64,000 bases of DNA from Antedon mediterranea (lineage: Eukaryota > Animalia > Echinodermata): assembly GCF_964355755.1 (NCBI RefSeq), contig NC_092670.1, forward strand, positions 14,804,795 to 14,868,794, written 5' to 3'. The notes under the pieces were generated by a model. The model was not told the DNA's origin and did not search any database. It was given only the letters and a program-made list of their open reading frames with translations. This document shows, piece by piece, positions 2,697 through 30,200 of the stretch. Positions within the stretch are counted from its first letter, which is position 1; each line of letters starts with the position of its first letter. A program made the position numbers and the translations under genes.

Positions 2697-3029
2697 ATAT
2701 AGTTTACCCACACAAATAAAATATCACATCAAACATTGTACTGTAATAGTTCAAAGAAAAGATTTTAAATGGGACCAAAAAGTAAGATTTTTCTTAAGAT
2801 GGTCTCCAGGACTGAAAAGGTAAAAAAAAAGATGATAAATTCGGAAACTGGTCTTGTTTCTGCTGGACAATAGTACTGTAACAATATTTAAAATGACCAA
2901 TTATTAATTCAAGATTATTTCTTGGCAGCAGGAACAGGCCTATAGGGACACTATGTCAAACACAATGTCTTAACACAACCATAAGTATAATATTATATAA
3001 TATAATCGAATGTCAACATTTATTTTTAG

Positions 3030-6000
3030 GTGAAAGTGGAGCTGGAAAAACGGAGGCGTCGAAGGTAATTATGAGATATATGGCAGCGATTACACATGCA
3101 AGCGGCCAGAATGAAATCAACAGGTAATTACATACATAATATTCATTCATAAATACCACTTGTTTAATAAAATTTCATGCTTGACTGAGTACATTGTCAG
3201 TGTGTCATAAATATCAATGACCCAAAAATCTTTAGATTGACAATTAAAAAAGAAATTATTGATTTTCAACACTGTTATTGTGTTTATTCTTATATTCATA
3301 CGGTTCTATTAATTGGAGTAGACATATATTACTTGCATGAATTTTACAGTAGATATAGATACCATGCAGTATTGAAGAATAGGACATAAAATAGTAAATT
3401 AATAAATTTTTTAATTGACTGTTTTATTAGTATTAATAGTTCAATGTCTTGAATTGAAGCCAGGACAAAATTTTATATACTCGGTTTAATTGTATGTTGA
3501 TGAGACAAACATAGTACCCGACCCTTAACAGCACCTCATATGGCCTAATATCAACTTGAATCCTATATTATTGTATCTCTAATGCACTTGTCAATTGTAT
3601 GACCCACTATACGACCCCCGGGAGAGGTGCGTCATGGGTGCGTCATTTACAAATAATTACTGACACAGGGGTGCGTCCAAGAACCTAGATGGTACGTCAC
3701 ATCAATGAACAAGGTTTGTCAATGTCCGTCACTTTACCACCCACCATATCATAAACAACATGGTCACAGTGCGTCAAAATGGGTGCGTCATGGTAACCTA
3801 AAGGTAAGTCACCTTTTTGACGCACGGGTGCGTCATGGTATTCAAAAGTATGACGCACATCGGACAAATGACGCACCTCTCCCGGGGGTCGTATAGTGGG
3901 TCATACAATTGACAAGTGCATAATCACTGACTGTGGTAAAGTGCGGACATGTTAGTATGTCATAGGGTCAATTTGTTATCCTCCTATAATAAGCCTCAGT
4001 TATAGATCCTAATGCTGATGATGTTATCTTGGTGTGTCTCACTATAAGGGCGCTTTTTTGACGAAGGTGCGATGTATATGATAAAGTTCTTCTTTTGGTA
4101 ATGTATTCGTCTCTTCAGAGAGAGAGGCTATTGTTGGTTTATATAGTAGACTATCAACACCACTATTTATTTGTGTTAAAAATAAAGGCCTTGTAAAACA
4201 TATGTCCTTTTGTCATTCTTTAGTATTTGAAAGCAAGGCCTCGTACCATGTTATAGAATCAACTTGTTATCCTTCTATAATGACCTTGGTTATAGGTCCT
4301 AATGGCAGCTTTTAGCATTTGCAAATAAAAAATAAGGCCTCAGTAGCACCTCATATGTCCTAATGACATAAACTTGTTAGTAAGATGAATAAAACCTCAT
4401 TCAGAAGATCTCAACTTGTTAAAATTCTTCATTATTTCACACCCAAAAGTGACATTGCCAAATTGGTACTTTATTGGTAATATATACAATAATAACATAT
4501 TGTTATATTTAATGACTATGCACAACTGTATTTTTTATGTTCTGTGGTTGAACAATAAACATACTGTACTGTAATACAGAATTGCATAGCCTATATAAAT
4601 ATGTGAATGTAATTGGTCAAAATGCATGACCATTGACCATACCAAGGCAATATTACATGTTATGTTGGCAGGGTAGATAAAATATAAAGTGATGTGAAAT
4701 TATGTGTGTATAAGCTGATGCTTTCGATTTGCACAACAAAATTAAAGTAGTACAAAATATTGTAGTTACCAATCAAATGCCTTATTTTGCTTGAAATAAA
4801 ATTATTCTCATCCAATCTAATTGTCTGATAGTGTTTATATAATAATAGTCTTTTGAGCCAATCAAAGGCCCTGTTAAAAGTAGTTTGAATGGTTTACTTA
4901 TTCTTTTTTTGGTTCTTATTTGCAGAGTCAAAAACATTCTTATCCAATCAAATGCTCTGTTAGAAGCGTTTGGAAATGCCAAGACAACTCGCAATGACAA
5001 TTCTAGTCGATTCGGCAAGTACATGGATATCAACTTTGACTTCAAGGGTGACCCTATCGGTGGTCACATTAATAATTATCTACTAGAAAAGGTATGTTTA
5101 TTTTAATAAAACCAAATCAAAATAGAAAGTTATTTGAATTTCTGTGAGCATTATTAAACATCTTTTCTGAAGCACCTATTTAAAACAGCGGCAAATGGAA
5201 GATCGATAAATAATTTCGACACTCTCTATTCAACAATGCGATAAATTAATAATTTTGTCTTTCTTTTTTTAAGTCGCGTGTCATTAGGCAGCAAGATGGC
5301 GAACGTAACTTCCATTCCTTTTACCAACTCTTGAGTGGAGGAACTGACCAACAATTAGCGGCACTCAAATTAGAACGTAACCCGGACAAATATCATTATG
5401 TTAATCAAGGAAATAGTGTAAAGGTATCAAGAAATTGTTTGTATATTTTTAGGGTTTTCATTTTTTTAAGGTGGAAAAGTTTCATCATTATCATCATCGC
5501 CAATCTTGTCAAAATCCTAGATTTTCTTGTGTGTTCATCTCTTTATGTAATTTTAGAGTGTAAGCCATATTACCTACAGTACATGATCATTAATATACAG
5601 GTAGGTCTGCACATGCCCAATGAACCCTAATCTCCCAAACATCCCTATCCTCCCATCCCCCAATATCTGTGCAGTAAAAACTGCCATAAAGTAATTAAAA
5701 TGCACCTAATATTTTTCATTTTCCCCTAATTTTTAGAAAGTACTGTAGTCTATTGTGGTATAGTGCTTATGGTTTTATAGATTCATATACAAATAGTACC
5801 CTTATTATATATACAGCAGAAAGACACAGTGCCCTACAGTAGATGATGTCACATTCACCGATGTAAGACCCTACTCTTCTGAAAGAAAGTTTCTAAAGTT
5901 CACACAGGCCAGATTTGTACACTGGGGCTGAACCTCCAGTTTGTAATTCCTAGACTGGTTCAACCACCAGAACTATGGTAGAGGAAAGTCTTGAAACTCT

Positions 6001-9000
6001 ACCGTATGGCTTTGTTTGTGGCCTAAACCGCTCGGCCACTCCACCTGATTTTGCAATTATTCCTCATAAACTTATTATGCACAAATACAGTACATAGAAA
6101 ACATGCATGAAAACAATATGTATGCAAGAAAAACTTGATGTTCTCTACATCTATGCATGACAAGTCCAGAATCAATACTCAATTTTACATAATGTGATAT
6201 TAAAATTTCATTGTAGTAATAAAATATACGTAGTTAAATTAAGAATGGGCATTAGTACTGTACACGCTTTATTACCTACTTAATGTATTGTGTTTTGCTC
6301 ATACTGTACACTGCTGGAATAGCAGCTACAGTAATACTCCTATCTGTATTAATAAATATACAGAGATGCTCCAACATTTTCTTTAAATATTTCCTATTAA
6401 TTTAGTGAACCAGTGGCATTTCAGAGCCAGAGAAAATTGGGGGGGAAAAATATTTTTTTTTAGAATTAATTATTTTTAGACATAAAATTCAAGATAGCAA
6501 TGTAAATAACTTTATGACAAAAAACTCCAATTTAATTAAACTCACTTATAATATATAGATATAATGAACAATAATATTTACATTAAATTGTATAAGAAAT
6601 CTAGCCACAATTAAAATTTCATAACATATTTGTAGATAAGCTTATAAAGTTTTTTAATAAAAGCCCTTTTGAATTTAGGTTATTAATTGCATCAGAATAC
6701 ATTGTACCATAAACCTTCTATAAGCATCAACACAGTATTAGAGATACATCTTTATGTATGTACACATATTATGATATTAACTACAGTTGTCATAATTCAC
6801 AATATTGCATATTTAATGGCTTTTTGATAGACAATAAATTGCCAATTCAGCTACCACGATAGACATCAAAATATGATTTAATAGTCACATTATATTAACA
6901 TCAGTTTCTGTTTTTATTAACAACAATCGATGCATATTGCTTGATTTAGTATTTAAACAACACAGTGTGTGCTAATTTTACCAGTATTCTTCCAATATAG
7001 AAATCAATTCCGGAAAATTAAGCGAAGTACCAAATTATTGATACACTAAAGATGTAACTAAAAAAACACAAATTGTACTTCTGTCTATCCAATTTGCAAA
7101 ATATAACCCTTGATTGCTCTTGTTCTATGTTTTTAATGGCTAGGCCTAACCTTCAACTACTAGGTTGTATTTCTTACATCATTTCCAATCTTGCTGGCAA
7201 AACCTGCCTCTGGAGGACACTGTATACAACTTTCCATGCCTATTTTTTTTTTTCTTTTCTTTGCTTGTATCATTTCTATTTCATTTGTGGTACTGATTAC
7301 AATATGAAAATTGCTCTTTTAATATATTTAAAATGTTGAAAGATATGTATCAAATATTTTTTATTTTACAAATCTTAAATTATTTTTGGCTTTTATAATT
7401 TTCATGTACATTACAAACGTTTACATGAATAATTCAGTACTAAATGCCATCATACACAGGCTCCTTGGAACTGGTGATTTACAATACTATCACTTTAATA
7501 TACATTCTTTAATGTATAAATTTTAGAATTCCAATGAAATGTAAAATGTATAAACCCCGGTATAAAGTATGATACATTTTTTTCTTTTTTTCCATTTCAG
7601 AACGACCAAAACATGGTAATTTTCTTTTGATTTCATTTATGTTTTCATATTTATTTTAGTTTACATTATTTTATTTCATAGTATTTCTTCTCGTATTTTC
7701 AATTTTGTTTTGGTTCCTATTCCGTGCCTAGATTATCTGGATTAACCAACAATAACCCCTTTCTTCAAAGAGAGGAATATGTGTATATTTTGGGTTTATT
7801 CAGCTAAATGTGGCATGCAGCATACCAACACTGTTGGTTTGTGTGATTTGAATTTTAATTACCAAATTTATTTTATCCTTATTTTTAAATTCTTTCCTTT
7901 CAATTATGTTATGTTTTTTATTTATAGTATTGTTTTGAATTGCTGTGTTTTAAAAAAAAATCTACTTTTCAAATATTTTACTTTCTATGAAATGAATTGT
8001 TACCTTTCTTTATTCTCTCTTAGTCCAAATAAATTAAACACCCACACTGATGGGTTTCTACCTGTATGTCATGTTTCAATCTATATACACTAAAGTGTAA
8101 TTTAATTCTTGAACATTTTACAGTTTAAGATTAGAGTTTACATTGGTATTGTTTTCATCAATAACAGTTTACTGTTTAAGCATGAATCTATAAATTATTA
8201 ATTTATAGGTCCATGGTTTATTAGTATTTCCTGGTAGATGGATTAGTATAGTACTTATCAGGACAGGACAAATAATAAATGTTTATAAGTGCGATGGTAC
8301 AAAATTTCAAATTTCACCTGATGAAATTATTTTTACCATCATACGAATATATAAACATTATTGTTCTATATAATACCTAAGTAGTAATTCTTGTCATTGT
8401 AATTGTTCTGATCTTTTTGTTGTGAAGGAGAGATTGTGTCGTGCACGTCGCTGCTTCTGTTCGCAGGGCCACCAAAAATATTGGATTTCACAAAGTATTT
8501 TTCCACAGTCGTTAAATAGTATGTACTAATGCATGCCATGTGACCAAAAATCATCCAATTAAATGACAAGAATCTATTTAGGTGTAATATAATAAAGAAT
8601 AGGCAGCCATAATCCTAGAAAATATTCATACAAATCTGTAGTAAAAAATGACTTTATATTTTATTTGAGCACTTTTAATCTGCAACATTTTATTAGACAG
8701 AAAATCAAGTATATATTTTAAATTAGTACTGTAAAAATTGTATAAAGATCTTGCAGTTTTCTGAATAGAAATCCGTATTATAGAAAACTTAGGTCGAAAA
8801 GATGTCTTTATCCCTATAAAAAGCTTAGGGTAGATCTATTAAAAAACTTACATTAGGGCAATTGGACACTCCTATCCTGACAGCCAGCAAAGTAGACATC
8901 CCTACACCTACACTACAACTAGATCGCATGTCATCAAAATTAATAGTTAAATGTGTTTTGCATTTTATCAATCTATATACAATATGATCCACATAATATA

Positions 9001-12000
9001 ATGTGTAAAATAATTACTACTGACAATGTAGTTATAAAACATATTTTGGTGGTTTTTAGGTTGGAACAATCAATGACCGAAAAGATTTCAAAACTGTACA
9101 AGAAGCAATGAGAGATATGCAGTTTTCACCTGATGAGTGTAAAACAGTTTGGGCAACTGTTGCATCCATCATGCACCTAGTAAGTACAAGAAAGGAAGAG
9201 TATTTCGTCTTTGGGACAACTCTATTAAGAGGAAAACCCTATTAGGAGGCGATCCTATTAAGATTCGATCCTATCAAGACAACCCTATTAAGGGGAAATT
9301 GTCAAAGAAACAAAAAATGAGAAAGTTTGTGTTTGTTTGTTTGGTCCAAAAGTTTTCATCTTAATAGTGGTTCTGTTGTACTGTATATATTTATTAAGTG
9401 TAGTATGTAGTATTTCTCTCAATACATTGTTTATAAATGATTGATTCCGCTTCCTAATTACTTCTCCTATCCAGTGCAGTTTAAACAAGCAATACAAAGA
9501 TGTAAATGCAAAAAACAAAACAGAAAGCATATGCACATATCTATTAATAGATTGTTTATATCAAAATGACTCTTTCTATACAGTATATATATAATCTCTG
9601 TTAAATGGAAACCGTTGGGTGTCCTCTTAATAGACTTGATCCCTGAAAGTGGTTGTCCGTAGAGATATTACCCCTAGAAAGTGTCCCCTTGATAGAGGTA
9701 TCCCAATAGATAATAATCTACTACTAATATTTTTAATTATTAAAACTATCTATTCCCAGTTTTGTTATTATGACATTTTTCCCAATACAGTTTGCACCTA
9801 TCATAAGAATGAACTAGCAATTGTTTTTTATTAGGGTGCAATCATTTTTGATAGCGAAGACAGTGAGCAGTGTTTTGTAAAGAACCCTGAAGATCTGTCG
9901 ACGATAACAGAGCTACTACAGGTACAGAAAGAAGACCTAGAAAAGGCATTGTGTTCCAGGGTTGTGGCTGCTAGGGGAGAGGTCATGGAGAAAGGTCACA
10001 CGTCAGAACAAGCAGAATTTGGAAGAGATGCATTTGCTAAGGTTGGTTAATGGTAGTGACTATTGTAATTATGTAAGCGTCTGGCCAGGACTATGTGCTA
10101 TTCTAGCTTCTATAAAAGTTATAATATTTCTCCTTATCTGGGTGTAGCGTACCAAAGTAGTAAGATCATTCAAATATTTGAAGGGTCAAGTACCTGACAC
10201 CTCGTAATCTATTTTGTAATTAACGCATGTTCGCTGTTAACTCAGTGACTGAACGATTATACAAACTGTATATCCAACATACACAATCTACTTTTTTTGC
10301 TCTATGAGTAAAAGGTTTCCAATGTACTCGTTCACACCATGGACAAATGAGCGCCTTTACCCATTGGTTGGAGCATCATTTATTTAAGTGTAGAATCACA
10401 ATTTAAATCGGCAATATATAAAACCATCATGGTCAAGTACTGTAGTAACAATAACAAGAACAATTTTGTAGTGGAGAAATATTTCTTATACAGCTAGATT
10501 TTCTATAGTTTAAAGTGAGTAATTCAGTCTTTCATTTATAGACAATCTTACTTTTTTCATACTCATAGCTAAACACTTGAATTCTAAATCCAAATATTTA
10601 AAGTGTTATTCGTGATTTCTTTAATTCAAAAGTGGTCTAGTTTTTTTTCTTCTTGAGTTTTTTGAGACAAGTCTAAGATGGGTATTAACAGAATTCAACT
10701 TGACATTCTGAAATTGACAATTGACAAATTAATCTGTAATTTTATAGATAAATACAATGTTCAGATATATACAATAGGTTGATATCATTTTTGTTCTATA
10801 ATTCTATTCTATAACCTTTTCTTTATGGATTTTACAACTTTTCAAGTTTCTTGGAGACATGTCTCAAGATATTTATGAGTAGAATTCAATTTCAAATTCA
10901 ATTTGACACTTGAGAAATAATCTTTTATTTATTTTTTGAATACAAAGGAAGTCATACATCAGATTAGACTAAATTAAAAAAATGGTTAGTTTCACATCCT
11001 GGATTTTAAATTAGTTTTTTTATGATTCAATAACACAACCTTTTAGAACATGACCGCGATTGTTTTTATACTAAATACGACCATTTTTTAAAAAGAAGTA
11101 CTAACAGGAATAAATTCCTGCTGCTCCAATATTTCAGAGAGGGGATGTGTTTTATTTTTTAATTTTTTTTAAATATAATGTTACTTTATTTTTATCTTGT
11201 ATTCCAATACACGTTGCTCTGTATAACATACCTTAAAAAAAGCCCAGCTCAAATGAAGCCCTCTCTTTGGTTTTCAAATGTAATTTAAAAAACAAGCCCA
11301 TTTTGAAAACAATCCCACTGGGCTTCTCGACTATTTGAATGTCAAAGGAGCAGAAATACACAATACCAACACATGGTTAAGAGTTAGTTGGGCGATTTAA
11401 ATGCTAGATATTTGTGTTTGTTTGAACTTTAAATGGCAAGTGAGCAAGTAAAACAAAAACTACACAGGCTGTGGGTTAATATCAATAGAATCATATTATA
11501 CAGAATGTGATAGTTTTGCATGTTGATCATGACTGCAGTATAGACTTCCTCATTATGCCTGTATATGGTATTGTTATGGAATGACCCTGACAAATATTGC
11601 ATATTCATTCTTTCCTGGTTTATTGAAATAAATATAATAATAATATTTGATAATTTAATTTGCAAGCCAAATGGCCAATCCGTAACTAAAGAGCCAACAA
11701 TATTGGTATGGGCTTGACGCTGACTCACTCCTACTGTAGTTCTGGTGAGGGAACCAGTCTTCTCGGATAGGGACTATAAACCATAGGTCCGGTGTAAACA
11801 GTTTTAACCTGTGTGCACTTCAAAGAACCTGAGGCTAACTGGTTCACAAAATAGCCCTGTATCAGAGGAATTACCACCTATCTGATAGGACAGTGATTTA
11901 TTTACTATTATTAGTAATCGTTTTGGTAAGCCACATGTGCCCAAAGACACAAAATGATACAAATATAAATACTATGTTTAAAATGTAAAGAAGATGGTAG

Positions 12001-15000
12001 TACTTTGAATGGAAATTGACAATTTCTTTTTATTATGAACTAATATTTACCTTTATGCATTTCACTCTGCAAATCCTTAATTAATTATCCAAACATTATG
12101 CTGCATGCACACGTGATTAATGATAATTTACATACGTGAATAAATTAAAATATTTTGGTAACCATCTTATTAATATTATGCTTGCAATGAATGCACACAT
12201 AGAAACCATCCATTTAGACACCCCTATCCGCAGAACACCTCTATTTAGTGGACACTTTCCTGTTAAAAAAAATTAGAAGCAATATATTTGTTAAATCTAC
12301 AGCCAATATTCAGGGTTTGCTTCTATTAAGGGACCCCATTGTTTGATCCTCAACAAACCACCTCATTAATAGGGGTTATATTGTAGTATGGAAAGTATAG
12401 ATTAAATGCATAATTTTGTTCAATCTTACTACAGGATTTAAATAATTACAGTACCACTTTAATTATCTAAATTTATTTTATAACATCAGGAAGTTTACAT
12501 TGTGAAAATTCACGCTTTTACTGCCTCTTTTAAAAGTTATTTTATTTTATCACTGATATAAATACATGTTATTACCACACAGGCTATTTACGATCGTCTA
12601 TTCAGCTGGATTGTGAGCAAGGTCAACGAAGCCATTGAGGTGAGAGGCTCAAACCTTAAGCACGGCAAGAGTACACTTATCGGCGTGCTTGATATCTATG
12701 GCTTTGAGATCTTTGATAACAACAGGTAAAATACATCGCTAATAACAGTGACACAAGAATGAGATTCTCTCAATATATTTTTAAGGATTAAGAAATATTT
12801 CATACTTATTTAGTTTTGAATTACAGGATAAATCAGCATGTATAAGGTTGACTTTTTAGACTTTAAGAGTATAAGTCGTTTTATTGTTGATAGATAATTT
12901 TCATTCTATGATGGTTCAAATATTCTCAATCACCCACACACATTGACCATAAGTAGGTAGTCAGCAATTCAGACATAAACAATTAAAATCAATTCTATCT
13001 TGACCCACATCTTGTAATTTCTAAAATGTAAAGTATTAAAGTCAACTAATCAATCAAAGTATGTTTGGTCAGTCAATTTCATTTGGTCAAATATATTTTT
13101 TATCGAGAGTGAGTCAAATCCAACACAATCGTAGCTCAAAAAGATAGCCACCACGGAGAGAGGAACCATTAAATTTGACTGCATCATCAATCGGCCAAAC
13201 ATATAAATGATAGTTGAAGTCACACACACTTACATATTGAGAATTCTGTTCATTACGACCTTATGCGAAAATTTCACTGGCATTAAAAATAGAATTAATT
13301 TTATAAAAATGTACTGTACTGTAGAATCCCTTTTTGATATTCAGGGGACACCTTTATTAAGGGAACTCATTCCTGTAAAAAAAATACTAAAATAAACCCC
13401 TATTAAATGGATACTTTTTTTTTTTGGTCCTTAAAAGGTCTCCTCTTAATAGAGGTTCTATCGTAAAAAAAACTGATTTATGGGGTTTTCTTGATATTGT
13501 TTTGGTTATTATAAATTTTATATACTAAAATTAGTGGTGCGGTCGCCAGGAGTACAGACCCTGTTTGCATTATATATCGGTGTCATCTATTTAACTCCCT
13601 AATACTTCTATGGGTGAAATAGTAAGGCTTGTTTTCTGCAGAGCTTTTAAATTTCAAAGAATTTATATTTTTACTGATTTTTTTAGTTTTTCCTGTTTAC
13701 TTCAATCAGAAACCTGTTGAAATTATATGTTGTATTTAACAGTAAATAAAGTACAAAGTAATTACTAGTGGCTATAGATTTTAGATGAACTGTACAAGGA
13801 AATGTCTCCGGCCTATTATAGACTTAAAATAATAAAATTTTTATGTGGGCATATGTGGGAGGAAATGTGTACCAACAATATTTTTCCTAATTATTTCCCT
13901 CTACATTTTTTCTTTCCGGTAATTATTTAAAATGCCAATGGAATGAAACGGCAACACCCAAAAAAAAAATACAGACTTTTTTTTCTTCCGCAGTCATAAA
14001 AAGGGTATATAATAGCAATAATGTGACAAATACAAAAATAAGCACTAACTCACAGTTTATCCTTGTTTAGCCTATATTTGTATGAAAATTTAACATTTTT
14101 GTCTAGATAAATAAGTTTTTTATAACATGTTTCAAATGTTCTAATACCCATAAATTGAATTTTTCTCATCATCTCATGTTAGGCTTTTTGTAGCTAGATA
14201 CTTAATAGGGTCAATGAATATCACAAGTACTGTAATACAGTGTAACATATGTATCACATGTCATAGGTCAACAAATAATCACTCTAAATTAAATTTGTCT
14301 TTTAGTTTTGAACAGTTCTGTATAAACTACTGCAATGAGAAACTTCAGCAACTGTTCATAGAATTAGTTTTGAAACAAGAGCAAGAAGAGTATGAACGAG
14401 AAGGAATTGAATGGCAGTCAATTGAGTACTTCAACAACAGAATAATCTGTGACCTAGTGGAGGAGAACCATAAAGGCATCATTGCCATCTTGGATGAAGC
14501 TTGTCTGAATGTTGGCAAAGTCACTGATGAGGTACTCGTCTTTATTTAATTCACCTTGATATATCTTGGCTGCTGTTTTCTATTTGCGAATATATCATAT
14601 AATATATAAACACCACAGGCACAGAACAAATTCTAAACCGCCCGGTGATATACTGAAAATTTATTAATTAATTTGATAATGTGAAGAAATCTGTGAGAAT
14701 GAGAAGTCACCCAACCGGGATTCGAACCTGGAACCTTTTGCTTGATATGCAGATGTCCTAACCATTAGACCACTGCGACATTCATATTATTGTTCAAACC
14801 CGATTGGATAGCGACTCTTTAACACTCTAATAATTATTTATTTTGTTTAATTCACCATTGTTCTAGATGTTTCTTGATGCAATGAACAAAAAGTTAACCA
14901 AACACCCTCATTACACAAGTAGAGCTCTGCAGCCCACTGACAAGTCTCTGGTACACAGCCAAGACTTCAGAATACGCCATTATGCAGGTGATGTCACGTA

Positions 15001-18000
15001 AGTGCCACATAATGTAGTTTTGTTTTCAGCAATTTCTTAATACTTCTCTCATTATTTCTGTAGGCTTTTAGTCTGAAGTTGCAGTGTAATATTCTATTGA
15101 TCTCATGTTTGTTTTTCCTCTAACTTAATTAACTATAAAAGAAAATATTCTACCAATATATGAGGTATATCAGGTTTAAATGTATACTAGATTGGACATC
15201 TCTTCACCCACTTTTCATGGAAGCATAGACATATTATAATGAATAATTATAATAATAATATCTCTATGATTACCCAATTAGTTTTAATTAAATAAATAAC
15301 ATTTTTACAGCTACGTTATCCATCAGTTTTTGCTCAAGAACAGAGACAGCTTGTTTCAGGATTTCAAACGATTGTTGTACAATAGTAGTAACCCCACCCT
15401 TAAAGCCATGTGGCCTGATGGAAAACAAAGTGTCAAACAGGTCAGAGGTCACAGTTCACCATTGCCATTCTAATCATTGGCTTTGCACCCTGCCTCATTT
15501 TCTGTGAATTGCAATCTGTGTTTGTTAATCATTTTAAAATTGGGAAAATTGGTGATATGTTAAATAACTGTCAATATGTATCGTCTGCTTTTGTGTAACA
15601 AAACTTGATAAACAGCATTTTGCATCTTGTTAGTTACAAAGTTCAACATTTTAAAGAGATTTTTATCATTAAACAAATTTATTTTTGTAGATATTATATT
15701 ATAGATACTTTGAACTTGGGAACCAATATAAACTACACAGTTTTATATTGAAAAAAAAATTGTTTATTTTATTAAAATTTATCAACCGAATAATGAATGG
15801 GAGATTTATATCTTGCTTTTCTCCTGTGTTTGAAATGAAATTTTCTGTAATAAAGTAATTTATAAAATGCTTAGGTATACTAAAAAATATTTATAAACAT
15901 TAGTAATATTATTAATTGCAAGAGCCAGCATCATTTTGTCAGTACATTGTATATCCATCATTGTTTTTCCACCGGCTGCTTTTTCTGCACATTCCAACAC
16001 CACATATTGCAGGTACGATGTAAGAGGCTACATGGATAAGAATAAAGACACCTTATACCAAGATTTCAAACGTCTACTGTATTCAAGCAGCAATAAGTCA
16101 ATTAAAGAAATGTGGCCAGACGGACAACAGAGTGTGTTGGAGGTATTGTAGCGCCACCGTAGATTTGACTTGATTTAACAAAGTAGAGTTGTAGCTTTGT
16201 ATTTAAGATACTTGGCTACCAATCCCATTTTCTCATGAAAAAGACTTCAATCTTTCACATACTGTAAGTGTGCATACATTAAAAAACTAGTATTATTCCA
16301 CATACCACACCTAGTGTGTTAAAGAGTCTTTATCCAAATTTGAAACATCAATAAATCCCAAGTTGTCTAACTGTAGGATTTCTGTATATCAAATTTACAA
16401 ATAAATTAATATAATATTACATCTGTTTTTAAAACTCGCCTTTTAATTGTAAGCACTGCAGGATCTTTTAGTAAAGAGCACCTAAAAAATATCCAGTTTA
16501 TTATTATTATTATCAAGCAGAAGATTCTGGGTTTGAATCTAGGTTAGGCAGCTGTTTCTCATTCTCACATTCTCATAGATTTCCTCATCTTCACCCATAA
16601 TCCTTTGCTTCTGCTATTTTATAATGTCACTATTTGTTGGTGAAGGGCAATTAAATATTATAGGTCTGGTTGAGTTTAATAATACTATTGCTTTATACAA
16701 ACAATTTTAATAATTGTTTATTAAGATTACACTGGTTCTTAATATAATTACTTCACCATTTCAGGGTTCGAAATTTACCTTAGCAAACTATCATGATTTC
16801 TTACAATCTGTAGTTTTAAATTTTAAAAGCTAGCTAATGTTTGCTTCCGGTCGTAATCTATCTTTAATAGCTAGTTTTCTACCCTGCCGTGTTGTATACA
16901 TTCTGTTTTTTATCATTACATTTGCTTAATGTGTTAATTCTTATTAACATTAACAGGTTACAAAAAGACCTTTGACTGCAGGTACAATTTTCAAAAACTC
17001 AATGATTGACCTAGTGAAGAAACTTACTACCAAGGTTAGTTAAGATTTTGATCGAAAGTAATGAATTGCGGTTGATTTTATGTTATTACACCATTGCATT
17101 TGAGTGCTGTTGAACCCCTATGAAAGACCTGACAAAGTGTCTTTTAAATAGAGGTGTCCCCTGAATAGAGATATCCTTGAATAGGGATTCCTTGAATAGA
17201 GATTCTCCTGAATAGAATGTCCTATAAGTATAGAGGTGTCCCTTAAATAGCAGTGTCCCCTGAAAGAGGTGTCCCCTGAATACGGGTGTCCCTTGAATAT
17301 AGTTGTCCCCTGAGTAAAGGTGTCCCCTGAGTAAAGGTGTCCCCTGAGTAAAGGTGTCCCCTGAAAGAGGTCTCCCTTGAATAGGAGTGACCCTTGAATA
17401 GAGTTGTCCCCTGAGTAGATGTGTCCCCTGAAAGAGGTGTCCCTTGAATAGAAGTGACCATGTTGTTTCTTCAACTGACTTTCAATACACAAAATTATTC
17501 TTTGCAGGAGCCATATTATGTTAGATGCATCAAGCCAAATGAGCAGAAATCTCCACTTCTATTCAATGATGAAAGATGCCTTCATCAGGTGCGATATCTG
17601 GGTTTGTTGGAGAATGTGCGTGTACGTCGGGCTGGCTTTGCTGCACGTATACACTATTCAAGATTCTTACAAAGGTAAGTACTTGGTTAAAGTTATCTTT
17701 TTACATCTATACATATATTGTATGCATCATCATGAACACACATAGATATGGAATCAAGAGTGCGAACCTCCAAGACAACCAGAAGGAGATGGCAAATGTT
17801 ATGGACTCTTGAGTACAAGTTCAAGATCTGTAAGGTTGTTTGTGTCATGTTTCACTCCTATTATCGTATACATTCAACTCTCCCAATACTGGAAACCTTG
17901 GAATATCTTGGAAATATCTTGATATTTTTAGTTTAATTTCAATATGTGAGGTATTTCATTTTTAGTTTTTGTATTTTGACTTTTTTTTAAATCTTGTAGA

Positions 18001-21000
18001 TACAAAATGTTGACACACTACACTTGGCCAAACTTCCATGACGGTACTGAAGAAGACGGGAGTAAAGTTATCGTTGAGCACATGGGATTTGCTGATGACG
18101 TCAAGTATGGACGCTCAAAGCTTTTTATACGAACGCCCAAAACAATCGTGGTTCTAGAAGAAGAGAGGAGAAAACTGTTACCATCTATTGTTCTTCTATT
18201 GCAAAAGGTTCATTACGTTTTTTAATAGTTGTTATCACATCCGCAGGGTATTCTTATCCTAGGCCGTACAAATTAATGCTTGTGTAGCGCAATTTGACAG
18301 CAAAAATCTATATCAAACTGTTTCAAATCAAATTGTATTTTGTAGGTTTGGCGCGGAACAGCAGCTAGGCTTCTAGCACGGCGTATGCGTGCTATTTACC
18401 TAGTAATGAACTGTTACAAACGTTACAAGGCCAGGCAATTTATGAAGAAAGTCATCGAAACGTTCCGAGACGTGAAACATTCGCGAGATTTAGGTAGGAA
18501 CCGTGCCTGGCCTCCACCACCTCATGTGTTGCTTGGCTTCACTGCTGAAATGAAAAAGATGCATAACAGGTAATAATATATATTATTGTTTAACCACATC
18601 AGAAGGAAGTGTTGTACCTTATTACTTATAATAAAGACTATTCATTAGTCCTTTAGGAGACTGACAGTATGCGGAACTATATTTAAACAAACATCGAGAA
18701 TCATAAATTATTGCATTGCAGTATAAGCGGAAAACTGCATAGCTTGTCCCACATAGAGTCTGTATCTATACTGAACGGAAACCACCCGTCCACTCTACGT
18801 TGCGTGTAAATGATCATAAGGAATAATATAGATTCTATATTTTTATTACCGTTACTGCTCGTCTGTGTAAATAGGCCTTGAAAAAGATTACAAAAGCCAT
18901 TAGTAAAACTGATTTAAATCTAGTTGTACTATGTTAATTCTAAAAATATAAATAATTCTGTATATTACAATATTGTATCAACATACAGAGTAAACTACTG
19001 TATAGCTATATTTAAATAATGAATTCATCAAGACACAAATTGAATTGTAAATAAATAAATTAAAGGCAGTGGGGGATATTTGTAATCTCTCTTCATTAAG
19101 TATCATTTTTTTTTTCAGTTTTAATCTTTGTTATACTTTATTCATATTACTGTATTTACTATTTTTTACTTGTAAAGATGGGTTGCAAAGACAGTGTTAT
19201 CAAGGATACCAAAGGAAGAATGGGAACAAGTACGGATCAAAGCAGCAGCAATGAACGCATTAAGAGGAAAGCGAAGTGATTGGGGATACAGACGAAAGTG
19301 GCAGGGAAATTATCTAGCCTCTGTAAGTTCAGAAAAGGAAATACAATTGTAAGAAAGAACCAATTGCTCATTCATAACCTCTCGACTAAATTATAAACAA
19401 ATGAGATGAGGCTATAATCACATGACTTATGAATCAGCAGCTTTTGAGACATAAAGTCATTCTTTTCACATACAGAAACATATGCGAAAACATTAGGAAA
19501 ACACGGTTCTTAACATATATATAATATTGAATAATATCTCTATTCTATTAGCTATAGCAATTTGGTTTTTTTTTTTTTGTATCCTGCCAAAATACATTGT
19601 GGTCTTTGATGTTTTTCTTTGTTTTATATGTTTTCCTTTGTTTTATATCTCTTGGCAATAAAGATTAAGAATATGAGCATACGCAAAATGACGTTTGATA
19701 CTGCTGCGTAGTCACGTTGGCACATCTAAGAAAACCTAAGATCACTATTAACATAAAAAGTTTAATTTTCTTCCAGCTAACCGACAACAATCAGACCGCT
19801 CCATTTGTGTCTGCAAGCAGCAATCTAAAGAACAAAGATAAATTCAACAAAGTGCTTTTCTCTTCCACCGTTGTAAAGGTACAGTACACCGTCCATTTTG
19901 TTATTACTAAGAACATATGACTGAATGTAATCCCATGATCAAGTATAATCCCACCCCCAAATGTAGGCTAGATTTGGACACTAGTTCATTGTTAATGCAT
20001 TCTTAGTATGATCCCACCATCACCATTTTTACCAAATTTCGTGTACCCTGACTTTACTGAAACTATACATAATAAGGAACTCTTTAATAGCAAAAACAGA
20101 ATTTGAAAGAAAAACAAAAGTGAAACAATGCCAAGTGCGGTATTTCCCATGACATACATACAGGATGGATGATTGAATTTATGAATGTTTTGATTGATAA
20201 TTAATTAATCGCATTGCAGACAGGTAAAACAATGTGTAACAAGTCAACACATTTATTGTATTGTATTGCATATTTTTTGTAGACATACATCTAGACCATA
20301 GCTCCTAGAATAACATGTGTTTATATTTAACGAATGTTTAATATGGATTATTTGCAGAATCAACAAACATGTAATATTGTAATTCTGTTAATAACAGTTT
20401 CACAATTGATGTGTTTATTTAATGAGTGTTTTAATATAATCTCTGTGATTAATATTTGCAAAGAGTCCGACCAAATAGAATACAAATATCATAATCGAAG
20501 GCGGTTCCAGGAACGCAAACACATAATATTATTAATAATGAATTAATTCATGTGTGTTAATGGATGTGGATATTAAAAAGTAGCTAATAATGTCATTTTA
20601 CAGTAGCTGCCAAAAGGCTCAACCCCTAGCAGCTTTTTAAAGACATATATTAAATAGTCAAAATTAGTTTACATTTTTGTTTTCCTTTAACCTGTTTATG
20701 CAATTATTTAGTAAGCTTTATTTGATAATAATGCATTACTTGTTAAATATTTGTTCAATTTGTTATAGGTTAATAAGCATAATAAGTGTGCAGACCGAGC
20801 CATATTGGTAACAGATAAATATATCTACAAGCTGGATCCAAAGAATGTCTTCAAGTCAATGTCACATATCAATATCACCGAGGTTAGTAAAAAAAACAAA
20901 GCAAATCCATTAGAGAAAGTGTCAAACTCTCCATGGAGAAAATAATATAGAGCGGTACAACGTTCTATACACAGAGACTGCCGGAAATGATAAGATCAGC

Positions 21001-22096
21001 ACACACAGATGCACATTGTAACGTGTCGTAGAATAGACAGTTATTTGTTTATTAATGTGGAATAAATTAGGCTATAAACAATAAATCAGACAGCTGAAGA
21101 ATCTCCTTCTATATATTTCCTCCACAGTGACCTCAAGCTTTACCACCCATCTATTCTTTTTGAACCCCACTTGACCTCTATGTATAAGCCATTGGAGATT
21201 TGTTTAAATGTTGTACAATTAAAACAATGGTACAAGTTTACACATTTCTTTCCATCCAAAGTTATAAAGATAAATATAGTTAAATTATTAATCATCTAAA
21301 CATCTAAAATAAATCCTTCTTAATATCAACAAAAAGTGTACCAGCAGGGCGTCACCCTCTGTCATTTTGTCCAGAATTTAACTTAAAGATATTCTTTTTC
21401 GGTTTTCAAACAGATAACAGCTCTGAGTATAAGTCCAGGAACAGACCAACTGGTCATCGTCCACTTACAAAATGGAAACGATTTAGTTGTATGCTTGACC
21501 AACTCATCTCAAGAAAATCGAGTTCCAGAATTTGTTGGTGTTCTATGCAGACATTGGGCAGTGTGAGTATTCCATGAATTCTAATTAGGTAATTTTGTAT
21601 CATGTGACATTGTAATTTATCCATTTACCATGTTTTCATAAGATCACATTGGACACCGCCATTTCCCATTTTCACAGCACCCTCAATGATACAGCAAAAC
21701 AAATATGCTACATGGGATTTATCATTCCTGGTTTGTTCAAGAATTTTTTTTAACCGCCCTAACATTCCTATTTCCACTACAAATTTGATCTCTCTAACAT
21801 ATTGAGGGCACACTACTAAATTGGCTCTATTCAATCCCACAATGCCTTTTTAAATGTTACATGTTTTGGATGAAGAGGATATTTTTGTGTTTTCTTTGAT
21901 ATTAATATATTAACATAAACCATTATAACATTATCATTTGTGTAGGACCAGGAATTCTGAACTGAAGGTGATAATAAATCCAATATTGAACTGTCAATTG
22001 GGTAAAAAACAACGGCATATTCAAATTGAGAAATCGCAAGTCTCATTTCCTGTCTTTGTGAAAAATGGAGAAGATTTAACATTAGCATACCCATAA
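3030..22096 (+). CDS. MYO1D: Unconventional myosin class I, MYO1D/Myo31DF-like (motor, IQ, TH1); N-terminal exons lie upstream of the window
   Basis: GT-AG exons in consistent phase: 3030-3123 (P-loop [12 protein letters not shown]), 4926-5091 ([19 protein letters not shown]), 5274-5423, 9060-9179, 9835-10041, 12583-12725 (switch II LDIYGFE), 14306-14531, 14867-14997 (HYAGDV), [15311-15440 or 16013-16142], 16957-17034, 17508-17674 ([22 protein letters not shown]), 18000-18207, 18346-18569 (IQ), 19178-19322, 19777-19878, 20769-20882, 21414-21562, 21946-22096 (TAA). About 901 aa lie in the window. [25 protein letters not shown] and a TH1 tail with no SH3 match my recollection of MYO1D rather than MYO1E/F. 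Confidence 0.93.
3583..3920. mobile_element. MITE with perfect 53-bp TIRs and TAA target-site duplication
   Basis: 3583-3635 is the exact reverse complement of 3868-3920; TAA at 3580-3582 and 3921-3923. Confidence 0.9.
5800..6046 (-). mobile_element. Diverged Deu/Nin-type SINE copy
   Basis: Reverse complement reads gtggccgagcggtttagg...agttctggtggttgaaccagtc...ccagtgtaca...gaagagtaggg. Confidence 0.6.
7601..7615 (+). CDS. MYO1D: Candidate 15-nt in-frame microexon of MYO1D (NDQNM)
   Basis: Long polypyrimidine tract and ttcag acceptor, then AACGACCAAAACATG, then gtaatt. Phase 0/0 matches the flanking exons (5423 and 9060). Confidence 0.55.
11671..11880 (+). mobile_element. Deu/Nin-type SINE, internally deleted copy
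   Basis: Shares the core ttctcggatagggactataaacc and the 3' tail aactggttcacaaaatagccctgtatcag with the 28695 copy. Confidence 0.7.
13318..13465. mobile_element. Degenerate MITE of a family with CAGTAGAACC-like ends and internal GTGTCCCCTTAATAGAG motifs (relatives near 9210-9300, 9580-9710, 12200-12390, 25222-25386, 56890-56950, 57140-57290)
   Basis: tactgtagaatccc...gaggttctatcgta ends; recurring ggggacacc / cctcttaatagagg motifs. Confidence 0.5.
14615..14780 (-). mobile_element. tRNA-derived SINE (second family)
   Basis: Reverse complement gtggtctaatggttagg...ggttcgaatcccgg gives A and B boxes, followed by a non-tRNA tail ttctcattctcacagatttc. A related + strand fragment starts at 16511. 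Confidence 0.65.
15311..15440 (+). CDS. MYO1D: MYO1D mutually exclusive exon A ([43 protein letters not shown])
   Basis: tttttacag acceptor, CAG|gtcaga donor, 130 nt, open in the required phase, homologous to exon B. Confidence 0.85.
16013..16142 (+). CDS. MYO1D: MYO1D mutually exclusive exon B ([43 protein letters not shown])
   Basis: ttgcag acceptor, GAG|gtattg donor, 130 nt, consensus DKNKD motif. Confidence 0.9.
16511..16650 (+). mobile_element. 5'-truncated copy of the second tRNA-SINE family
   Basis: tatcaagcagaagattctgggtttgaatctaggtt...ttctcattctcaca aligns to the reverse complement of 14685-14748. Confidence 0.55.
17148..17452. repeat. About 17-bp minisatellite (GAGGTGTCCCCTGAATA-like), amplified MITE-internal motif
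   Basis: Roughly 18 degenerate copies seen directly. Confidence 0.85.
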
Positions 22097-24300: not shown

Positions 24301-25803
24301 ATTATCTATTTTAATGGTTTAACTGTGCAGTTATATGTAGTAGTATATTATTAATTATTTTTAATATAATCTTTCGATTTATTTTACATGATATACCGGT
24401 ACAACTTCATTTATAACTAATTTATTACTGCATTTGGTAAAAACAACTCAATATGAAACAAATCCAATATGATATGAAGATTATACTAAAACCTGTGCCA
24501 AATTACTAATTTTATTCTAATTTAGTAATCGAATCCTCTTTAAATGTGCCTAGTTTCTGCTTTTTATAAAAAGATTATATAATCGCTTTTTTATGAAACA
24601 TTTCTTTTAAATCCATAATTTAAAAATCCATGATTGAAATAGCGGGTAAAATAATATTCAGTTCATCCAAACTCGCAATTTAATAATCAACATTAAAATG
24701 ATGAAAATTACAGCAGAACATAGACTCTGACGTCGGAATTTTATACATGCCGCGTTCAAAATATAATATGAAGGCGCGCCGCCGCCTTGACAATAATAAT
24801 ATGTCGTCGAATATACTAAGGGCCGTCGTCAATAGATATGCGAAACCATTATAATAGTTTTAAACATCGCTTTTAGATTAGTGCACACATTCTTTGGTAA
24901 GCCTCCTAGATGGACATAATTTACGTTATCTTGTTTTAAATTATGCTAAAGTGTGCTAAACGAAACTTTAAAGATAAATTAATATATAATTTATATAGAT
25001 TATCAAAGTATATCGCAGTTAATCGTAGAAAATGATAGTACCAGATAAATTGTATAGCCATAAATAAAAACACTACTTATATGTTTTGTATTGAATCGAA
25101 TAATTATAAATGATTTATATTTATAAATTCATAATTTTTAATATTCACATTAATTTATTATTATTCCGTCGATATTAATCAATTGAAATGCACTCCAATC
25201 GTAATTTAAATAGCGTCTATAGTACAGTAGAGAACCCCTCAGTAGAAACGAGGGGAAATGAATGCACTAAAGGCCAATCCATATTAGGAACAAGGCCATC
25301 ATATAGCTTTCTTAGGAGACATCCATATTAAATAGACACTTTGTGTCCAGAAGATATTCCCTCACTAGGCCTATATATTCTACTGTATAATATACGTAAT
25401 GTAACAATAGTCAATTATAGCTTTGCTTGTAAAACATCTCATTCTTTTTGTATTAGTGTATCGCATTGTTTATTTTGATAAACGCCTGGTTACAAACACA
25501 AATGATTTTTACATGTGCCAATATATAGACCCTAAGAATATTACAGGTGGTGATATAAAAACATATAGTAGGCCTCGGAGTTGCGACTGGCTGGACATAC
25601 CGTAGTCAGTCATCATTTAATATACGATATAATCGCTATGTATACAACATTTATATATATATTTATGCCGACAACGTATATTCGAATAATAAAATAATGT
25701 CAGTGTTTTTAATAAATTTCAGATTTTCTGACTAAAGTTTGAATTTGATTTTCTCTTGTGTACGCTTAATTAGCAAATGTCTTCCTAGCATCATCGTTAC
25801 GTG

Positions 25804-26046
25804 GATACAAAATAAGTTGAAATTAATTTACGTCGTATGGGGCGCAGTTTGGGACATGCATAATTAGTATTTTGTTTGAGAATTTTTTTTTCACATTTCC
25901 ATTATTTCAAAGCAAAAAATTCTTTGAACAAAATTTCTTCTCAAACTACAGTGTCTATACAATGGCTGTATTTTAACTTAATAATACATTTTTCCAAATT
26001 TCGCCCCGTACGACGTAAATTCATTTCAACTGTACTTTCCGTGTCC
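25804..26046. mobile_element. MITE with imperfect TIRs of about 50 bp
   Basis: agttgaaattaatttacgtcgtatggggcg versus cgccccgtacgacgtaaattcatttcaact. Confidence 0.7.
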
Positions 26047-26053
26047 TTACTAA

Positions 26054-26232
26054 AGCGTGGTTCCCACTAGCGACGCAACACAAAGACGTAACGCAACGCA
26101 AGTGAATTGACCAATCACAAGCGATGGCTTATTCGCTTGTGATTGCTAACTGTCTATAACTTCGCTTGTCATTGGTTAAAACGCTTGCGTTGCGTTTACG
26201 TCCTTGCGTTACGTTCTAGTGGGAACCAAGCT
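26054..26232. mobile_element. PIF/Harbinger-type foldback MITE
   Basis: AGCGTGGTTCCCACTAG...CTAGTGGGAACCAAGCT flanked by TAA/TAT; partial copy near 49613. Confidence 0.8.
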
Positions 26233-26756
26233 TATCGGCGCTTTAACGCGGATAACCTAGTAACTCGACGAGTTCAAAATCTAGTTAAGTCTTTATTGAA
26301 GCGTTTGTTTAGGAATTTTATATTAGTGTTGATATACGTTACAAAATGTCTTGTCTGAACGCCTGAAAAATTGAAAGTTAAACAATCAATGGTAACAGCA
26401 CGTAATCGAAAATTGTGAATTAAATAATTTGATACAGAATGAAGTTTATAATAATATTGGTAATGGTAATTTCGTGAGAAATTTTTTATATCTACATATG
26501 GTATTACAAATGGATATATTATTTGATTCACTTATTTATTTGACGTTAGTATTTGGAATGCCAAATTCAACAATACATCAAGTTTACATTATAGTTTTAT
26601 ATGTTGCAATTCAAATAGAATTTCAATTTAATATTACAAGTGAAGGAGAACATTGTGGAAAGTAAATACAATCACGCCGACGTTTGCAAGATTCGGAACA
26701 ACTTGAAGATAAGATTGTTATTAACAATAACCTAGTTGATTAACTAATTGATATAC

Positions 26757-26990
26757 GCGTCCAAAAGCTGATACACGCGCGTTTAAATAATGTACGCGTA
26801 ATTTATTAAAATCTAAAATTTATAAAAATGATTTAGTACGGTACGTTAATCAAATCTCCACTATTACGTTAACGATAACATGTGACTGACGGACGGACAG
26901 ACTTTGCGTCCAAAGGCTGATAATACGGATTTACACGCGCGTTTAAATAATGTACGCGTAATTTATTGAAATCTGAAATTTATAAAAATG
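26757..26990. repeat. Direct duplication of about 75 bp
   Basis: gcgtccaaa.gctgata...tacacgcgcgtttaaataatgtacgcgtaatttatt.aaatct.aaatttataaaaatg occurs twice. Confidence 0.85.
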
Positions 26991-27174
26991 TGACGACTAC
27001 TGTACGATCATCGTGGCCAGAGAACAGGTGCATTAAACAAAAGAAATAATAAATTAAAATCAAATAATTCGAAAGGCCACCGACAAAGCAAAAATGTTTA
27101 CAGAGCATAATTTCGTCATTTGCAAAGTTAAACCAAACAAGGACATCTGTGAAATATAATGTATTGAAAGTGTG

Positions 27175-27182
27175 TATATAAA
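27175..27182 (+). promoter_or_regulatory. TATA box of mucin-like gene 1
   Basis: TATATAAA about 80 nt upstream of ATG 27257; the paralog has TATAAAA at a similar position. Confidence 0.6.
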
Positions 27183-27256
27183 GGGGGGAAAGACTAAATA
27201 TATGTTATTAGTATAACCGTTTTTGGAGCGAGTTATACTGTTAAGAAGCCTCTAAA

Positions 27257-30200
27257 ATGCCTCTGATGCGAGGTTCAGATCTAATTTTGATAGTGGTAGG
27301 CCTACTATGTTTTACGAAAACTGGGTTTTCGCAAATGCAATGTGGTAATTTAGAACAACCAGAAAATGGAGAGCTCGTTTGCGCCGTATTGGCAAACGTT
27401 GCGTAAGTTTGATTTTTCATTTCATTTTTTTAGTTTTACTCGTGAAATGTTAGCAAGTACTGTAATAATCCGATTTCGTCCATATTATAAAATACATGTT
27501 CCCTTTTTAAACTAGTGTGTGTTACTAACTTATATTCAATAACTTTCAAACAAATGTTTTCGTATTCCTAAACCTCTTTAATATTACAGACGTTGTTTCT
27601 TACGCTGCGATACTGGATACGTCCTGCCTCTAGAGGCAAGTGACGAATTCGAATGCACATCGAGTGGATGGTCACCGTCGTCTGTCCCCAACTGCGTTGG
27701 TAAGTGAGGAGAAGCTTGCCAATCCTGCTACTCTAAAAATGGAAAAAGATAATTAAAACAGCAGATGTTTGCTTGTTTTTAATAATTTCCATTTTTGTTA
27801 GCTTGACTTCTTCAAATTAGGATTATTATCTATCCCTTTGAAATAAAAGTTATAAAATATATTAGAAATTAGTGAATTAATATGAATAAGATAACAATGG
27901 AAATAGAAAATAATGATAAAGATACCCATCATCATCATCATCATAATCATCATCATTATCATCGCCATCATCATCATCATTATCATCATCATAATCATCA
28001 TCATTATCATCATCATCATTATCATCATCAACATCATCATCATTATAATCATCATCATCATCATAAGTATCATCATCAGTTACGCTCGTCTTGTGAACTG
28101 ATGCTTTCCACTGTATACCATTTTACTGTGATATGAGCAGAAATTAAATGGATGTTTATTGTGTCTTATTATAATGTACCTATTCCTTTTTCGACTTTCG
28201 TGATCCATGTAGATTTAAGAGAATATTATTATTAATTATTAGTAACCCTGATGAATTTCTTGCTGTTTACTGTCATGATTTGATCCTATATTTTATTGTT
28301 GATATTAATGTCATTCTCTTATTAGCAATAAACTTGTGCTTAGAAATAAATCAACCGCTTAACGGAACGTTTTCGTGTTCTTTTCTAAGTGAAACAAGGT
28401 AAGTGTACCTTAAATTTTGCATTAGAATATTTTAATTGAAACACGCAACGTAATGTTTGGCGTATATAATAACATATATATTTATTTTATTTTATAAAAT
28501 ATATATTTAAAAATTCAATAGACGCTTTCATACGGCATGACGTTTTAGAATAGCTTAGGTTCTAGACCATATTTCTAATTGATATTAGTAAAAGGATAGC
28601 TATTTTGGCACATATGGCGTCTCATACGTAGATATTACTTTACAACCTCTATTCCTTTCATAGGAAAGCGGGGTTCTACTGTAATAAGTATCATATGAGT
28701 CATATGGCCGAGCGGGTAAGGCAGGGGCGTCGTTTACCGTACCTAAAGAGCCAACAACAACATCGGCAAGGGTTCGATGCCGACTCGCTCCTAGTTCTGG
28801 TGGTGGAACAAGTCTTCTCGGATAAGGACTATAAACCGTAGGTCCAGTGTACACAGTTATAACCTGTGTGTACTTTAAAGAAACCCAGTTCATTATTCGA
28901 AAAAGAGTAGGGGGTTACCCCAGTGAACTGGTTCACACAATAGCCCCTGTATCAGGGGGATGACCACCTATATTAATTCACTATTGGTAATCGTTGGCCA
29001 CATTGCCTAACATAAAATAAAAAAATAAAATAAATAAAATTTTGAATAACTTTTGTTTCAGTTCTTGCGTCGCAACTTGCGAAGAGGGATACGAATTCTC
29101 TAAGGGTGTTAACAGCATTAAAACTACATGTAAAAATAGTGTAGGTCGTTGGGAACCAATCATACCGGACTGTCAACGTACGTATATATATATTTTTTCT
29201 CTCTCTTTTATGGCGCAAACACCACTTTTATTCACATTCATATTATCTTGTATCAATACATAAAATAATATTATTTAACACATTTTTGTTAATTCTAAAT
29301 GTCGTTACAATTCATCAGTAACATTTTTACATTTATGAATTCCGTATTACCTCTTTTTTCATTAATGTTCTTATATTTTTCTATACACGTGACAATGATC
29401 ATCATTATCATCTATCCGGTTTTAAAATATTTTACACGTAAACAATTTGTGAGTTTTTAATTATACAAATAATGAATGATCATTAGGAGAATATTATACC
29501 TTAATCTTTAAACAAATTCAACCATTCTCTTCGTTCATCAAATACAAGAAGAATATATTTGTTCTAAAGTAAATTTCGAGGGAACCACGCAAAAAATACT
29601 GTGTTCGAATTTGGCGACAGAAAGTAGAAAGAATATAGACGACGCACTCTGTGAGTTGGTTGTCGCGCCGCGTCCTAAAGTATCATCACATGCCACAACA
29701 ATCTCGAAATGTTTGCAGAAAGATTACATCGTGTATCGGTAAATGGGACGAAATAACCATCAATACCTATTTTAAGGTGAAATTGGTATTTTTGTTGTTT
29801 AGTTAAAATGTGGTTTTGCTAATTCAAAAAATGGTTTAATATTGTCTTTACTATGTATTAGTTAATTGCAATTATTGTTATTAATTGTATTGATTGATAT
29901 TTGTGTTGTTTTTTAGCTGCTTGTGATATTGAATGCAAGAATGGCGGTACGTGCGTCGAACCAAATGTTTGTGCTTGTCGCACGGGCTTTATTGGTAGCT
30001 ACTGTGAAACCGGTAAGTCGTTCGCTATACGCTAAACAGAAAAGATAGTTTATTAAAATTATTGTGTAGGGTCAGTATATTTACGATAGCAGTTTATAAT
30101 TTGTTGCAATAAGTCTTCTTTTCCAGAAACGTTTGCCTGAAACATCAAGGAATTTGCTCAGCTACAACGATGGTCATCTCGCATCGAATTTTAATGTATC

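Follow-up and report, generated by a model that had tools for sequence, protein, structure and literature searches.

A conserved pair of mutually exclusive motor-domain exons in a MYO1D-like class I myosin gene of feather stars

The window, which is the whole 64,000 nt stretch of Antedon mediterranea DNA that was analysed, carries a MYO1D-like class I myosin gene on the forward strand (3029..22093). Its coding part consists of 19 GT-AG exons per isoform, and the spliced exons encode residues 103-1008 of, and match exactly, RefSeq XP_071959721.1 (P0121), the 'unconventional myosin-Id-like isoform X1' of this species. Residues 1-102 were not found in the window. Pfam recognises only a Myosin_head and a Myosin_TH1 domain in the protein, without TH2 or SH3, and the best PDB matches are class I myosins. 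All named proteins among the best 120 matches of two protein searches, which report similarity only, are MYO1D or MYO1G, and vertebrate MYO1D and MYO1G share 53-60% whole-length identity with the Antedon protein. From this we infer that the Antedon gene is probably a pro-orthologue of both vertebrate MYO1D and MYO1G. A large, cysteine-rich second gene follows it on the same strand (about 25400-40000+), with frames that we take to resemble von Willebrand D, TIL and sushi modules. A strong strand skew is seen at 40-48 kb (GC skew -0.65, AT skew +0.36), as a Thr-rich mucin-type repeat would give.

Two alternative features are found within the motor domain. The smaller is a cassette microexon of 15 nt (7601-7615, forward strand) encoding NDQNM, flanked by AG/GT and of phase 0 at both ends, which accounts for the difference between RefSeq isoforms X1 and X3. 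At this site Anneissia carries an insert of 6 residues, and Strongylocentrotus and Lytechinus variegatus one of 7-8 residues; in Anneissia and Strongylocentrotus the inserts are likewise isoform differences. Judging from these inserts, the cassette may be as old as the echinoderms.

The larger feature is a pair of exons, A and B, proposed in an earlier note made from the DNA letters alone. They lie on the forward strand between an upstream constitutive exon (14867..14997), which ends in HYAGDVT, leaves phase 2 and provides the donor common to both, and a downstream constitutive exon (16957..17034), which starts with VTKRP and presumably encodes the basic C-terminal end of loop 2 and the helix that follows it. 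Exon A (15311..15440) encodes residues 521-563 of isoform X2 and is 100% identical to P0001, and exon B (16013..16142) encodes residues 521-563 of isoforms X1 and X3 and is identical to P0121. The intron between them (15441..16012) is 572 nt long. The positions, the length of 130 nt each, the AG/GT sites and the phases (2 in, 0 out) were all as the note had given them. Either exon on its own joins the two constitutive exons in a frame free of stops. As had also been predicted, the frame is lost when both or neither are included, and each product meets an early stop: with A and B together it falls 27 nt into B, 103 nt ahead of the next junction, and with both skipped it comes after 19 nt of the downstream exon, leaving 59 nt to the next junction. 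The pair had been called hidden, with exon A invisible in the track of open reading frames. The open frame of A is indeed only 57 aa and falls below the 80-aa ORF list that holds the frame of B. However, RefSeq models already annotate both forms, and the description is therefore true of the ORF list only.

Exons A and B are identical at 79/130 nucleotides and 25/43 residues. When the B isoform was used as a tblastn query, exon A was recovered with an E value of 1e-12, and at the level of sequence the resemblance is more than chance. No second copy of any other exon was found by tblastn at E values up to 5 in window positions 1-26000, a scan that is blind to the 15-nt microexon because that exon is too short. 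As claimed, shared residues are written with different synonymous codons (14 of the 25, including those quoted in the note). The NG86 estimates between A and B are pS 1.03, which is saturated and based on about 23 sites, and pN 0.25. Because pS is saturated against this low pN, and because A and B retain 36/43 and 39/43 identity respectively between crinoid families (see below), the pattern of substitution indicates that both copies are under purifying selection.

Five runs cover this part of the gene, and reads from four of them were mapped over 14800-17100. None of the five is recorded as RNA. Run X1, represented by contigs, is presumed to be RNA, and its GT..AG joints are the evidence drawn on; runs X2-X4 are DNA-like and come from one sample. 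The four junctions expected of an either-or choice were all present in X1, which represents one sample. The joints of exon A (14997>15311 and 15440>16957) have a contig depth of 16.2 and those of exon B (14997>16013 and 16142>16957) a contig depth of 30, contig depth being a poor measure of expression level. None of the four (0/4) was found in the three DNA-like runs, and one DNA contig (X3 record 17) covers the entire 14800-17100 stretch. The A>B joint (15440>16013), frequent use of which would have spoken against the original proposal, is not listed in X1; contigs lose rare forms, and low-level co-inclusion is possible. The same applies to the joint that skips both exons, of which none is listed in X1. 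Intronic contigs adjoining exons A and B also occur in this run at low depth. Taken together, these data confirm A and B as paralogous exons that arose by tandem exon duplication, and support their use as a mutually exclusive pair.

Some further features of this stretch were noted. Read depth is very high at the start of 14800-17100 and at 16511-16590, reflecting repeats in the flanking introns; a segment resembling a tRNA was noticed by eye near 14710-14780, and a short tandem array occupies 17140-17400 in the flanking intron. At 16080-16082 the exon B contig of X1 reads TTG (Leu) and the window TAT (Tyr), a two-base change absent from X2-X4 that may be an allele, a population difference or an assembly error.

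Comparison with a second crinoid places the pair in a wider setting. RefSeq isoforms X1 (XP_071959721.1) and X2 (XP_071959724.1) of Antedon differ at 18 sites, all within the exon (residues 522-563), and isoforms X1 (XP_033097294.1) and X2 (XP_033097295.1) of Anneissia japonica differ at 15 sites, again all within the exon (523-564). In both species X2 carries A and X1 carries B. Antedon belongs to the Antedonidae and Anneissia to the Comatulidae, and the orthologue of exon A that the earlier note had asked for in a relative is therefore found intact in another family (P0002, 36/43 residues identical). Between the two species A is identical at 36/43 residues and B at 39/43, against 25-28/43 for A versus B. 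The rest of the motor is identical at 599/657, and neither exon differs from it (Fisher p 0.11 for A, p 0.79 for B). A tree built from 20 exon peptides unites the A exons of the two species (100/98) and likewise their B exons (99/96), and pairing of the Antedon copies within the species is rejected (p-AU 0.00045). The duplication is therefore older than the split between Antedon and Anneissia. Combined with the saturated pS and the pN of 0.25, this bears out the proposal of an old duplication with both copies constrained as protein. No divergence date for the two genera was found in the literature, including parts of PMC11959729 and PMC13079724, and for this reason the age of the pair is given only as older than their split. 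The pair is almost certainly real and conserved; it is already contained in RefSeq gene models, yet apparently undescribed.

A deeper origin is possible. B clusters at 90/89 with the one exon that other echinoderms have, A lying outside, and this placement hints that the duplication may be older than the crinoids. However, the tree has only 43 columns and a long A branch, which are weak data for a deep origin, and an origin within crinoids is compatible with it (p-AU 0.29). Eleven other echinoderm species have one annotated version each, counted on 16 annotated protein records and not on genomes, and an unannotated second copy in these species is possible. A search of short A-like fragments (23-76 aa) gave one candidate, which has the usual Asp at exon position 8. 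A profile search against representatives at 50% identity turned up no additional A form from a crinoid within the best 150 of its 224 matches, and no isoform pairs were recognisable by name in the sequence clusters of 10 distant homologues. The other matches consisting of two stretches that we inspected were single exons interrupted by an intron. The top match of the profile search with three copies is a Plutella xylostella model (P0228), in which the equivalent exon is repeated in tandem and the copies are near-identical. Since the upstream stretch is also repeated in the same model, this is probably an assembly or model artefact, and a recent exon duplication is not the favoured reading.

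We then asked what the exon encodes. Its residues 1-34 align without gaps to residues 559-592 of myosin Va (8r9v), and the exon as a whole spans myosin Va 559 to about 599. Residue 12 aligns to D570, which part of PMC5550493 identifies as the Asp of the strut and the counterpart of D590 in Dictyostelium; by this alignment the exon is shown to hold the strut Asp at residue 12. The last residues of the exon presumably form the first half of loop 2, as judged from myosin topology. An AlphaFold model built on a 25-row alignment had a mean pLDDT of 56.7, with values <50 over most of 439-632, and is unusable for placing the loop-2 boundary. With the boundary taken from topology, the net charge of loop 2 would be +3 with A and 0 or +1 with B. 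Among 63 distinct loop-2 segments, +3 is reached by the two crinoid A forms only, and 10 others reach +2. Over the whole exon, +4 is found in the two A forms only among 80 distinct exon versions, and Antedon B has a net charge of 0. The comparison set behind these counts is 388 stored proteins, which is rich in vertebrates and contains no named hemichordate or amphioxus. B has a peculiarity of its own at position 6, where all 143 of 143 stretches from distant homologues have Phe and both crinoid B forms have Tyr. B is closer than A to the single exon of other echinoderms. As far as these comparisons go, A and B each have their own derived states.

Our preferred reading, to which we assign a probability of roughly 0.6, is that A and B are a conserved and expressed pair of mutually exclusive exons that tunes the actin binding and actin-activated kinetics of MYO1D. 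A tandem exon duplication before the Antedon-Anneissia split would have given rise to two MYO1D motors. The more basic loop 2 of the A motor (+3 versus 0 or +1) would hold actin more tightly in the weak-binding step and lengthen the dwell, in the manner of a tether; the B motor would be the ordinary echinoderm motor. Parts of PMC8698748 report that in myosin V the net positive charge of loop 2 increases actin affinity, and that loop 2 acts with the strut in cleft closure. That swapping A for B tunes the motor is our inference from sequence, and several observations count against it. A and B forms do not differ in the strut Asp at position 12, the Lys9-Asn10 pair or loop 2's basic KRP end. The single version of echinoids is already at +2, which makes +3 a small step, and the single version of starfish lacks the acidic residue at position 8.

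A different reading is one that we regard as a real but clearly less probable contender: the pair is real, the two proteins are nearly equivalent, and each exon has been kept by splicing specific to a tissue or stage (subfunctionalisation), with the differences arising by drift. Core strut and helix residues are common to the two forms (25/43 identical overall), their Pfam scores lie within about 1 bit of each other (819.4 and 820.5), and many mid-exon residues of A match vertebrate MYO1D/1G (29-30/43). However, both crinoids retain the basic exon end peculiar to A and the Tyr6 peculiar to B, and these states lie beyond what the remaining versions in the comparison show.

A further reading makes A a braked or partly uncoupled motor, in which the loss of the conserved Gly5 and Asp8, shortly ahead of the strut, disturbs cleft closure and the protein serves as a membrane-actin anchor or as a competitor of B. 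In the aligned stretches of 150 distant homologues an acidic residue (Asp or Glu) occupies position 8 in 142/145 and Gly occupies position 5 in 121/134; both crinoid A forms lack both residues. Moreover, the two positions differ between the A orthologues (Gln/His and Leu/Ala), which fits relaxed constraint. On the other hand, starfish MYO1D has Tyr at position 8 of its single version in 4/4 species (P0146, P0198, P0199, P0200), a loss that is separate from the one in crinoid A. The acidic residue is thus dispensable. A also retains Asp12 and Lys9-Asn10, with conservation similar to that of the remaining motor, and we consider this reading unlikely.

A bolder version of the preferred reading, also unlikely, has splicing of a single MYO1D gene exchange this exon and so switch between two mechanochemically distinct motors, a task for which flies have the two genes Myo1D and Myo1C. 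A would be strongly binding, with gliding that differs and is possibly altered in its chirality. In this version the duplication would date to the echinoderm ancestor, and sea urchins, starfish, brittle stars and sea cucumbers would have lost exon A or would carry it unannotated. It is very improbable that A serves mainly as a switch for unproductive splicing, with co-inclusion or skipping leading to nonsense-mediated decay and so setting the level of MYO1D: the products with both or neither exon do have early stops upstream of junctions, and X1 has its low-depth intronic contigs by the exons, but in the same run A replaces B in frame, and A is conserved as a protein. Finally, the least probable reading, in which A is a pseudoexon in decay or arose as an artefact of assembly or annotation, would suit its greater distance from the consensus (E 0.096 for A and 8.9e-05 for B in a PDB search against Dictyostelium MyoE) and the predicted nature of the RefSeq models, but it is already largely refuted by the DNA contig spanning the stretch (X3 record 17), the splicing of A on both sides in X1, the intact orthologue in another family and synonymous saturation alongside protein conservation.

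Returning to the preferred reading of a tuned pair, we sought signs of how the exclusion could work. Steric hindrance, which would call for a branch point of B no more than about 50 nt from the donor of A, is not supported, the 572-nt intron being too long and the AG-free zone ahead of B just 68 nt; the only branch-like motif within 120 nt of B lies at 15912. Docking-selector exclusion gained no clear support: in a search for competing RNA pairing, the best duplexes of seven pairings, intronic or exon-intron, were matched by 1 to 9 of 12 shuffles, and the inverted repeats are AT-rich. The acceptor of A scores 8.8 bits and that of B -1.6, lower than any of the gene's 17 other acceptors, and the donors score 6.4 (A) and 5.0 (B), on a matrix trained on the gene's own introns and hence on a small set. 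The choice could be set by competition between the strong A and the weak B acceptor under trans-acting control. Nonsense-mediated decay could then clear products with both or neither exon. In these products the next junction follows the stop at a distance of 103 and 59 nt, respectively, to be read against the 50-55 nt rule. The enforcement of exclusion is the least supported step in the proposed mechanism. A 6-nt insertion at 16144, just inside the donor of B with the GT kept, is present in X3 and X4 and could shift the balance of A and B between individuals.

Part of the interest of the pair lies in the protein concerned. MYO1D is a conserved determinant of left-right asymmetry, and its motor domain sets handedness in flies, according to parts of PMC10374968. 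The two forms are natural MYO1D motors identical at 990/1008 residues that differ in the strut/loop 2 exon only. They offer a minimal pair, supplied by nature, in which to see how affinity for actin, duty ratio and the path of gliding depend on this segment in a class I myosin. The surprise is moderate, since RefSeq models already contain the event and muscle myosin provides a known example of the device.

The closest records are the X1 and X2 models of Antedon and Anneissia themselves, which represent the same event and differ in this exon alone; they are automatic gene models, which do not describe what the event is, how old it is or what it means. As to the suggestion that such exons are new for MYO1D, we found no published description, but the event itself is in these models. 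No account of mutually exclusive exons in MYO1D or any class I myosin was found among the papers listed by full-text searches, subscription journals being mostly outside them, and parts of PMC6537884 and PMC2375034 name none for class I. PMC5583752 states, citing its Additional file 1, that mutually exclusive clusters are present in many myosins, and it lists Oxycomanthus japonicus, under the genus Anneissia, in its species table. The crinoid cluster may be recorded in that file or in CyMoBase.

Among related genes, vertebrate MYO1D and MYO1G and Drosophila Myo1D and Myo1C belong to the same subclass but are separate genes, and according to parts of PMC10374968 the sequence of the motor domain determines their kinetics and, as to flies, also the handedness of organ chirality. 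In fragments matching vertebrate sequences this stretch is split mid-way by an intron, and no alternative version of it was present among the vertebrate records fetched. A close parallel is muscle myosin II (Mhc), for which mutually exclusive motor-domain exons were, as the earlier note had stated, already known, in the clusters described in PMC3912159. Like those clusters, the crinoid exons are tandem alternatives of equal frame in the motor domain; unlike them, they belong by Pfam architecture to class I and not class II. According to Kollmar and Hatje 2014 (PMC3912159), cluster 8 of Mhc alters loop 2, is of bilaterian-ancestor age and is present in the Mhc of both sea urchin and acorn worm; the strut region is not named in the cluster descriptions consulted. 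The crinoid pair is not a member of cluster 8 but the upstream neighbour of its exon, holding the strut and loop 2's putative N-terminal portion, and the basic end of loop 2 presumably lies in the next, constitutive exon. This suggests that the loop 2 region has been targeted by splicing independently in class I and class II myosins.
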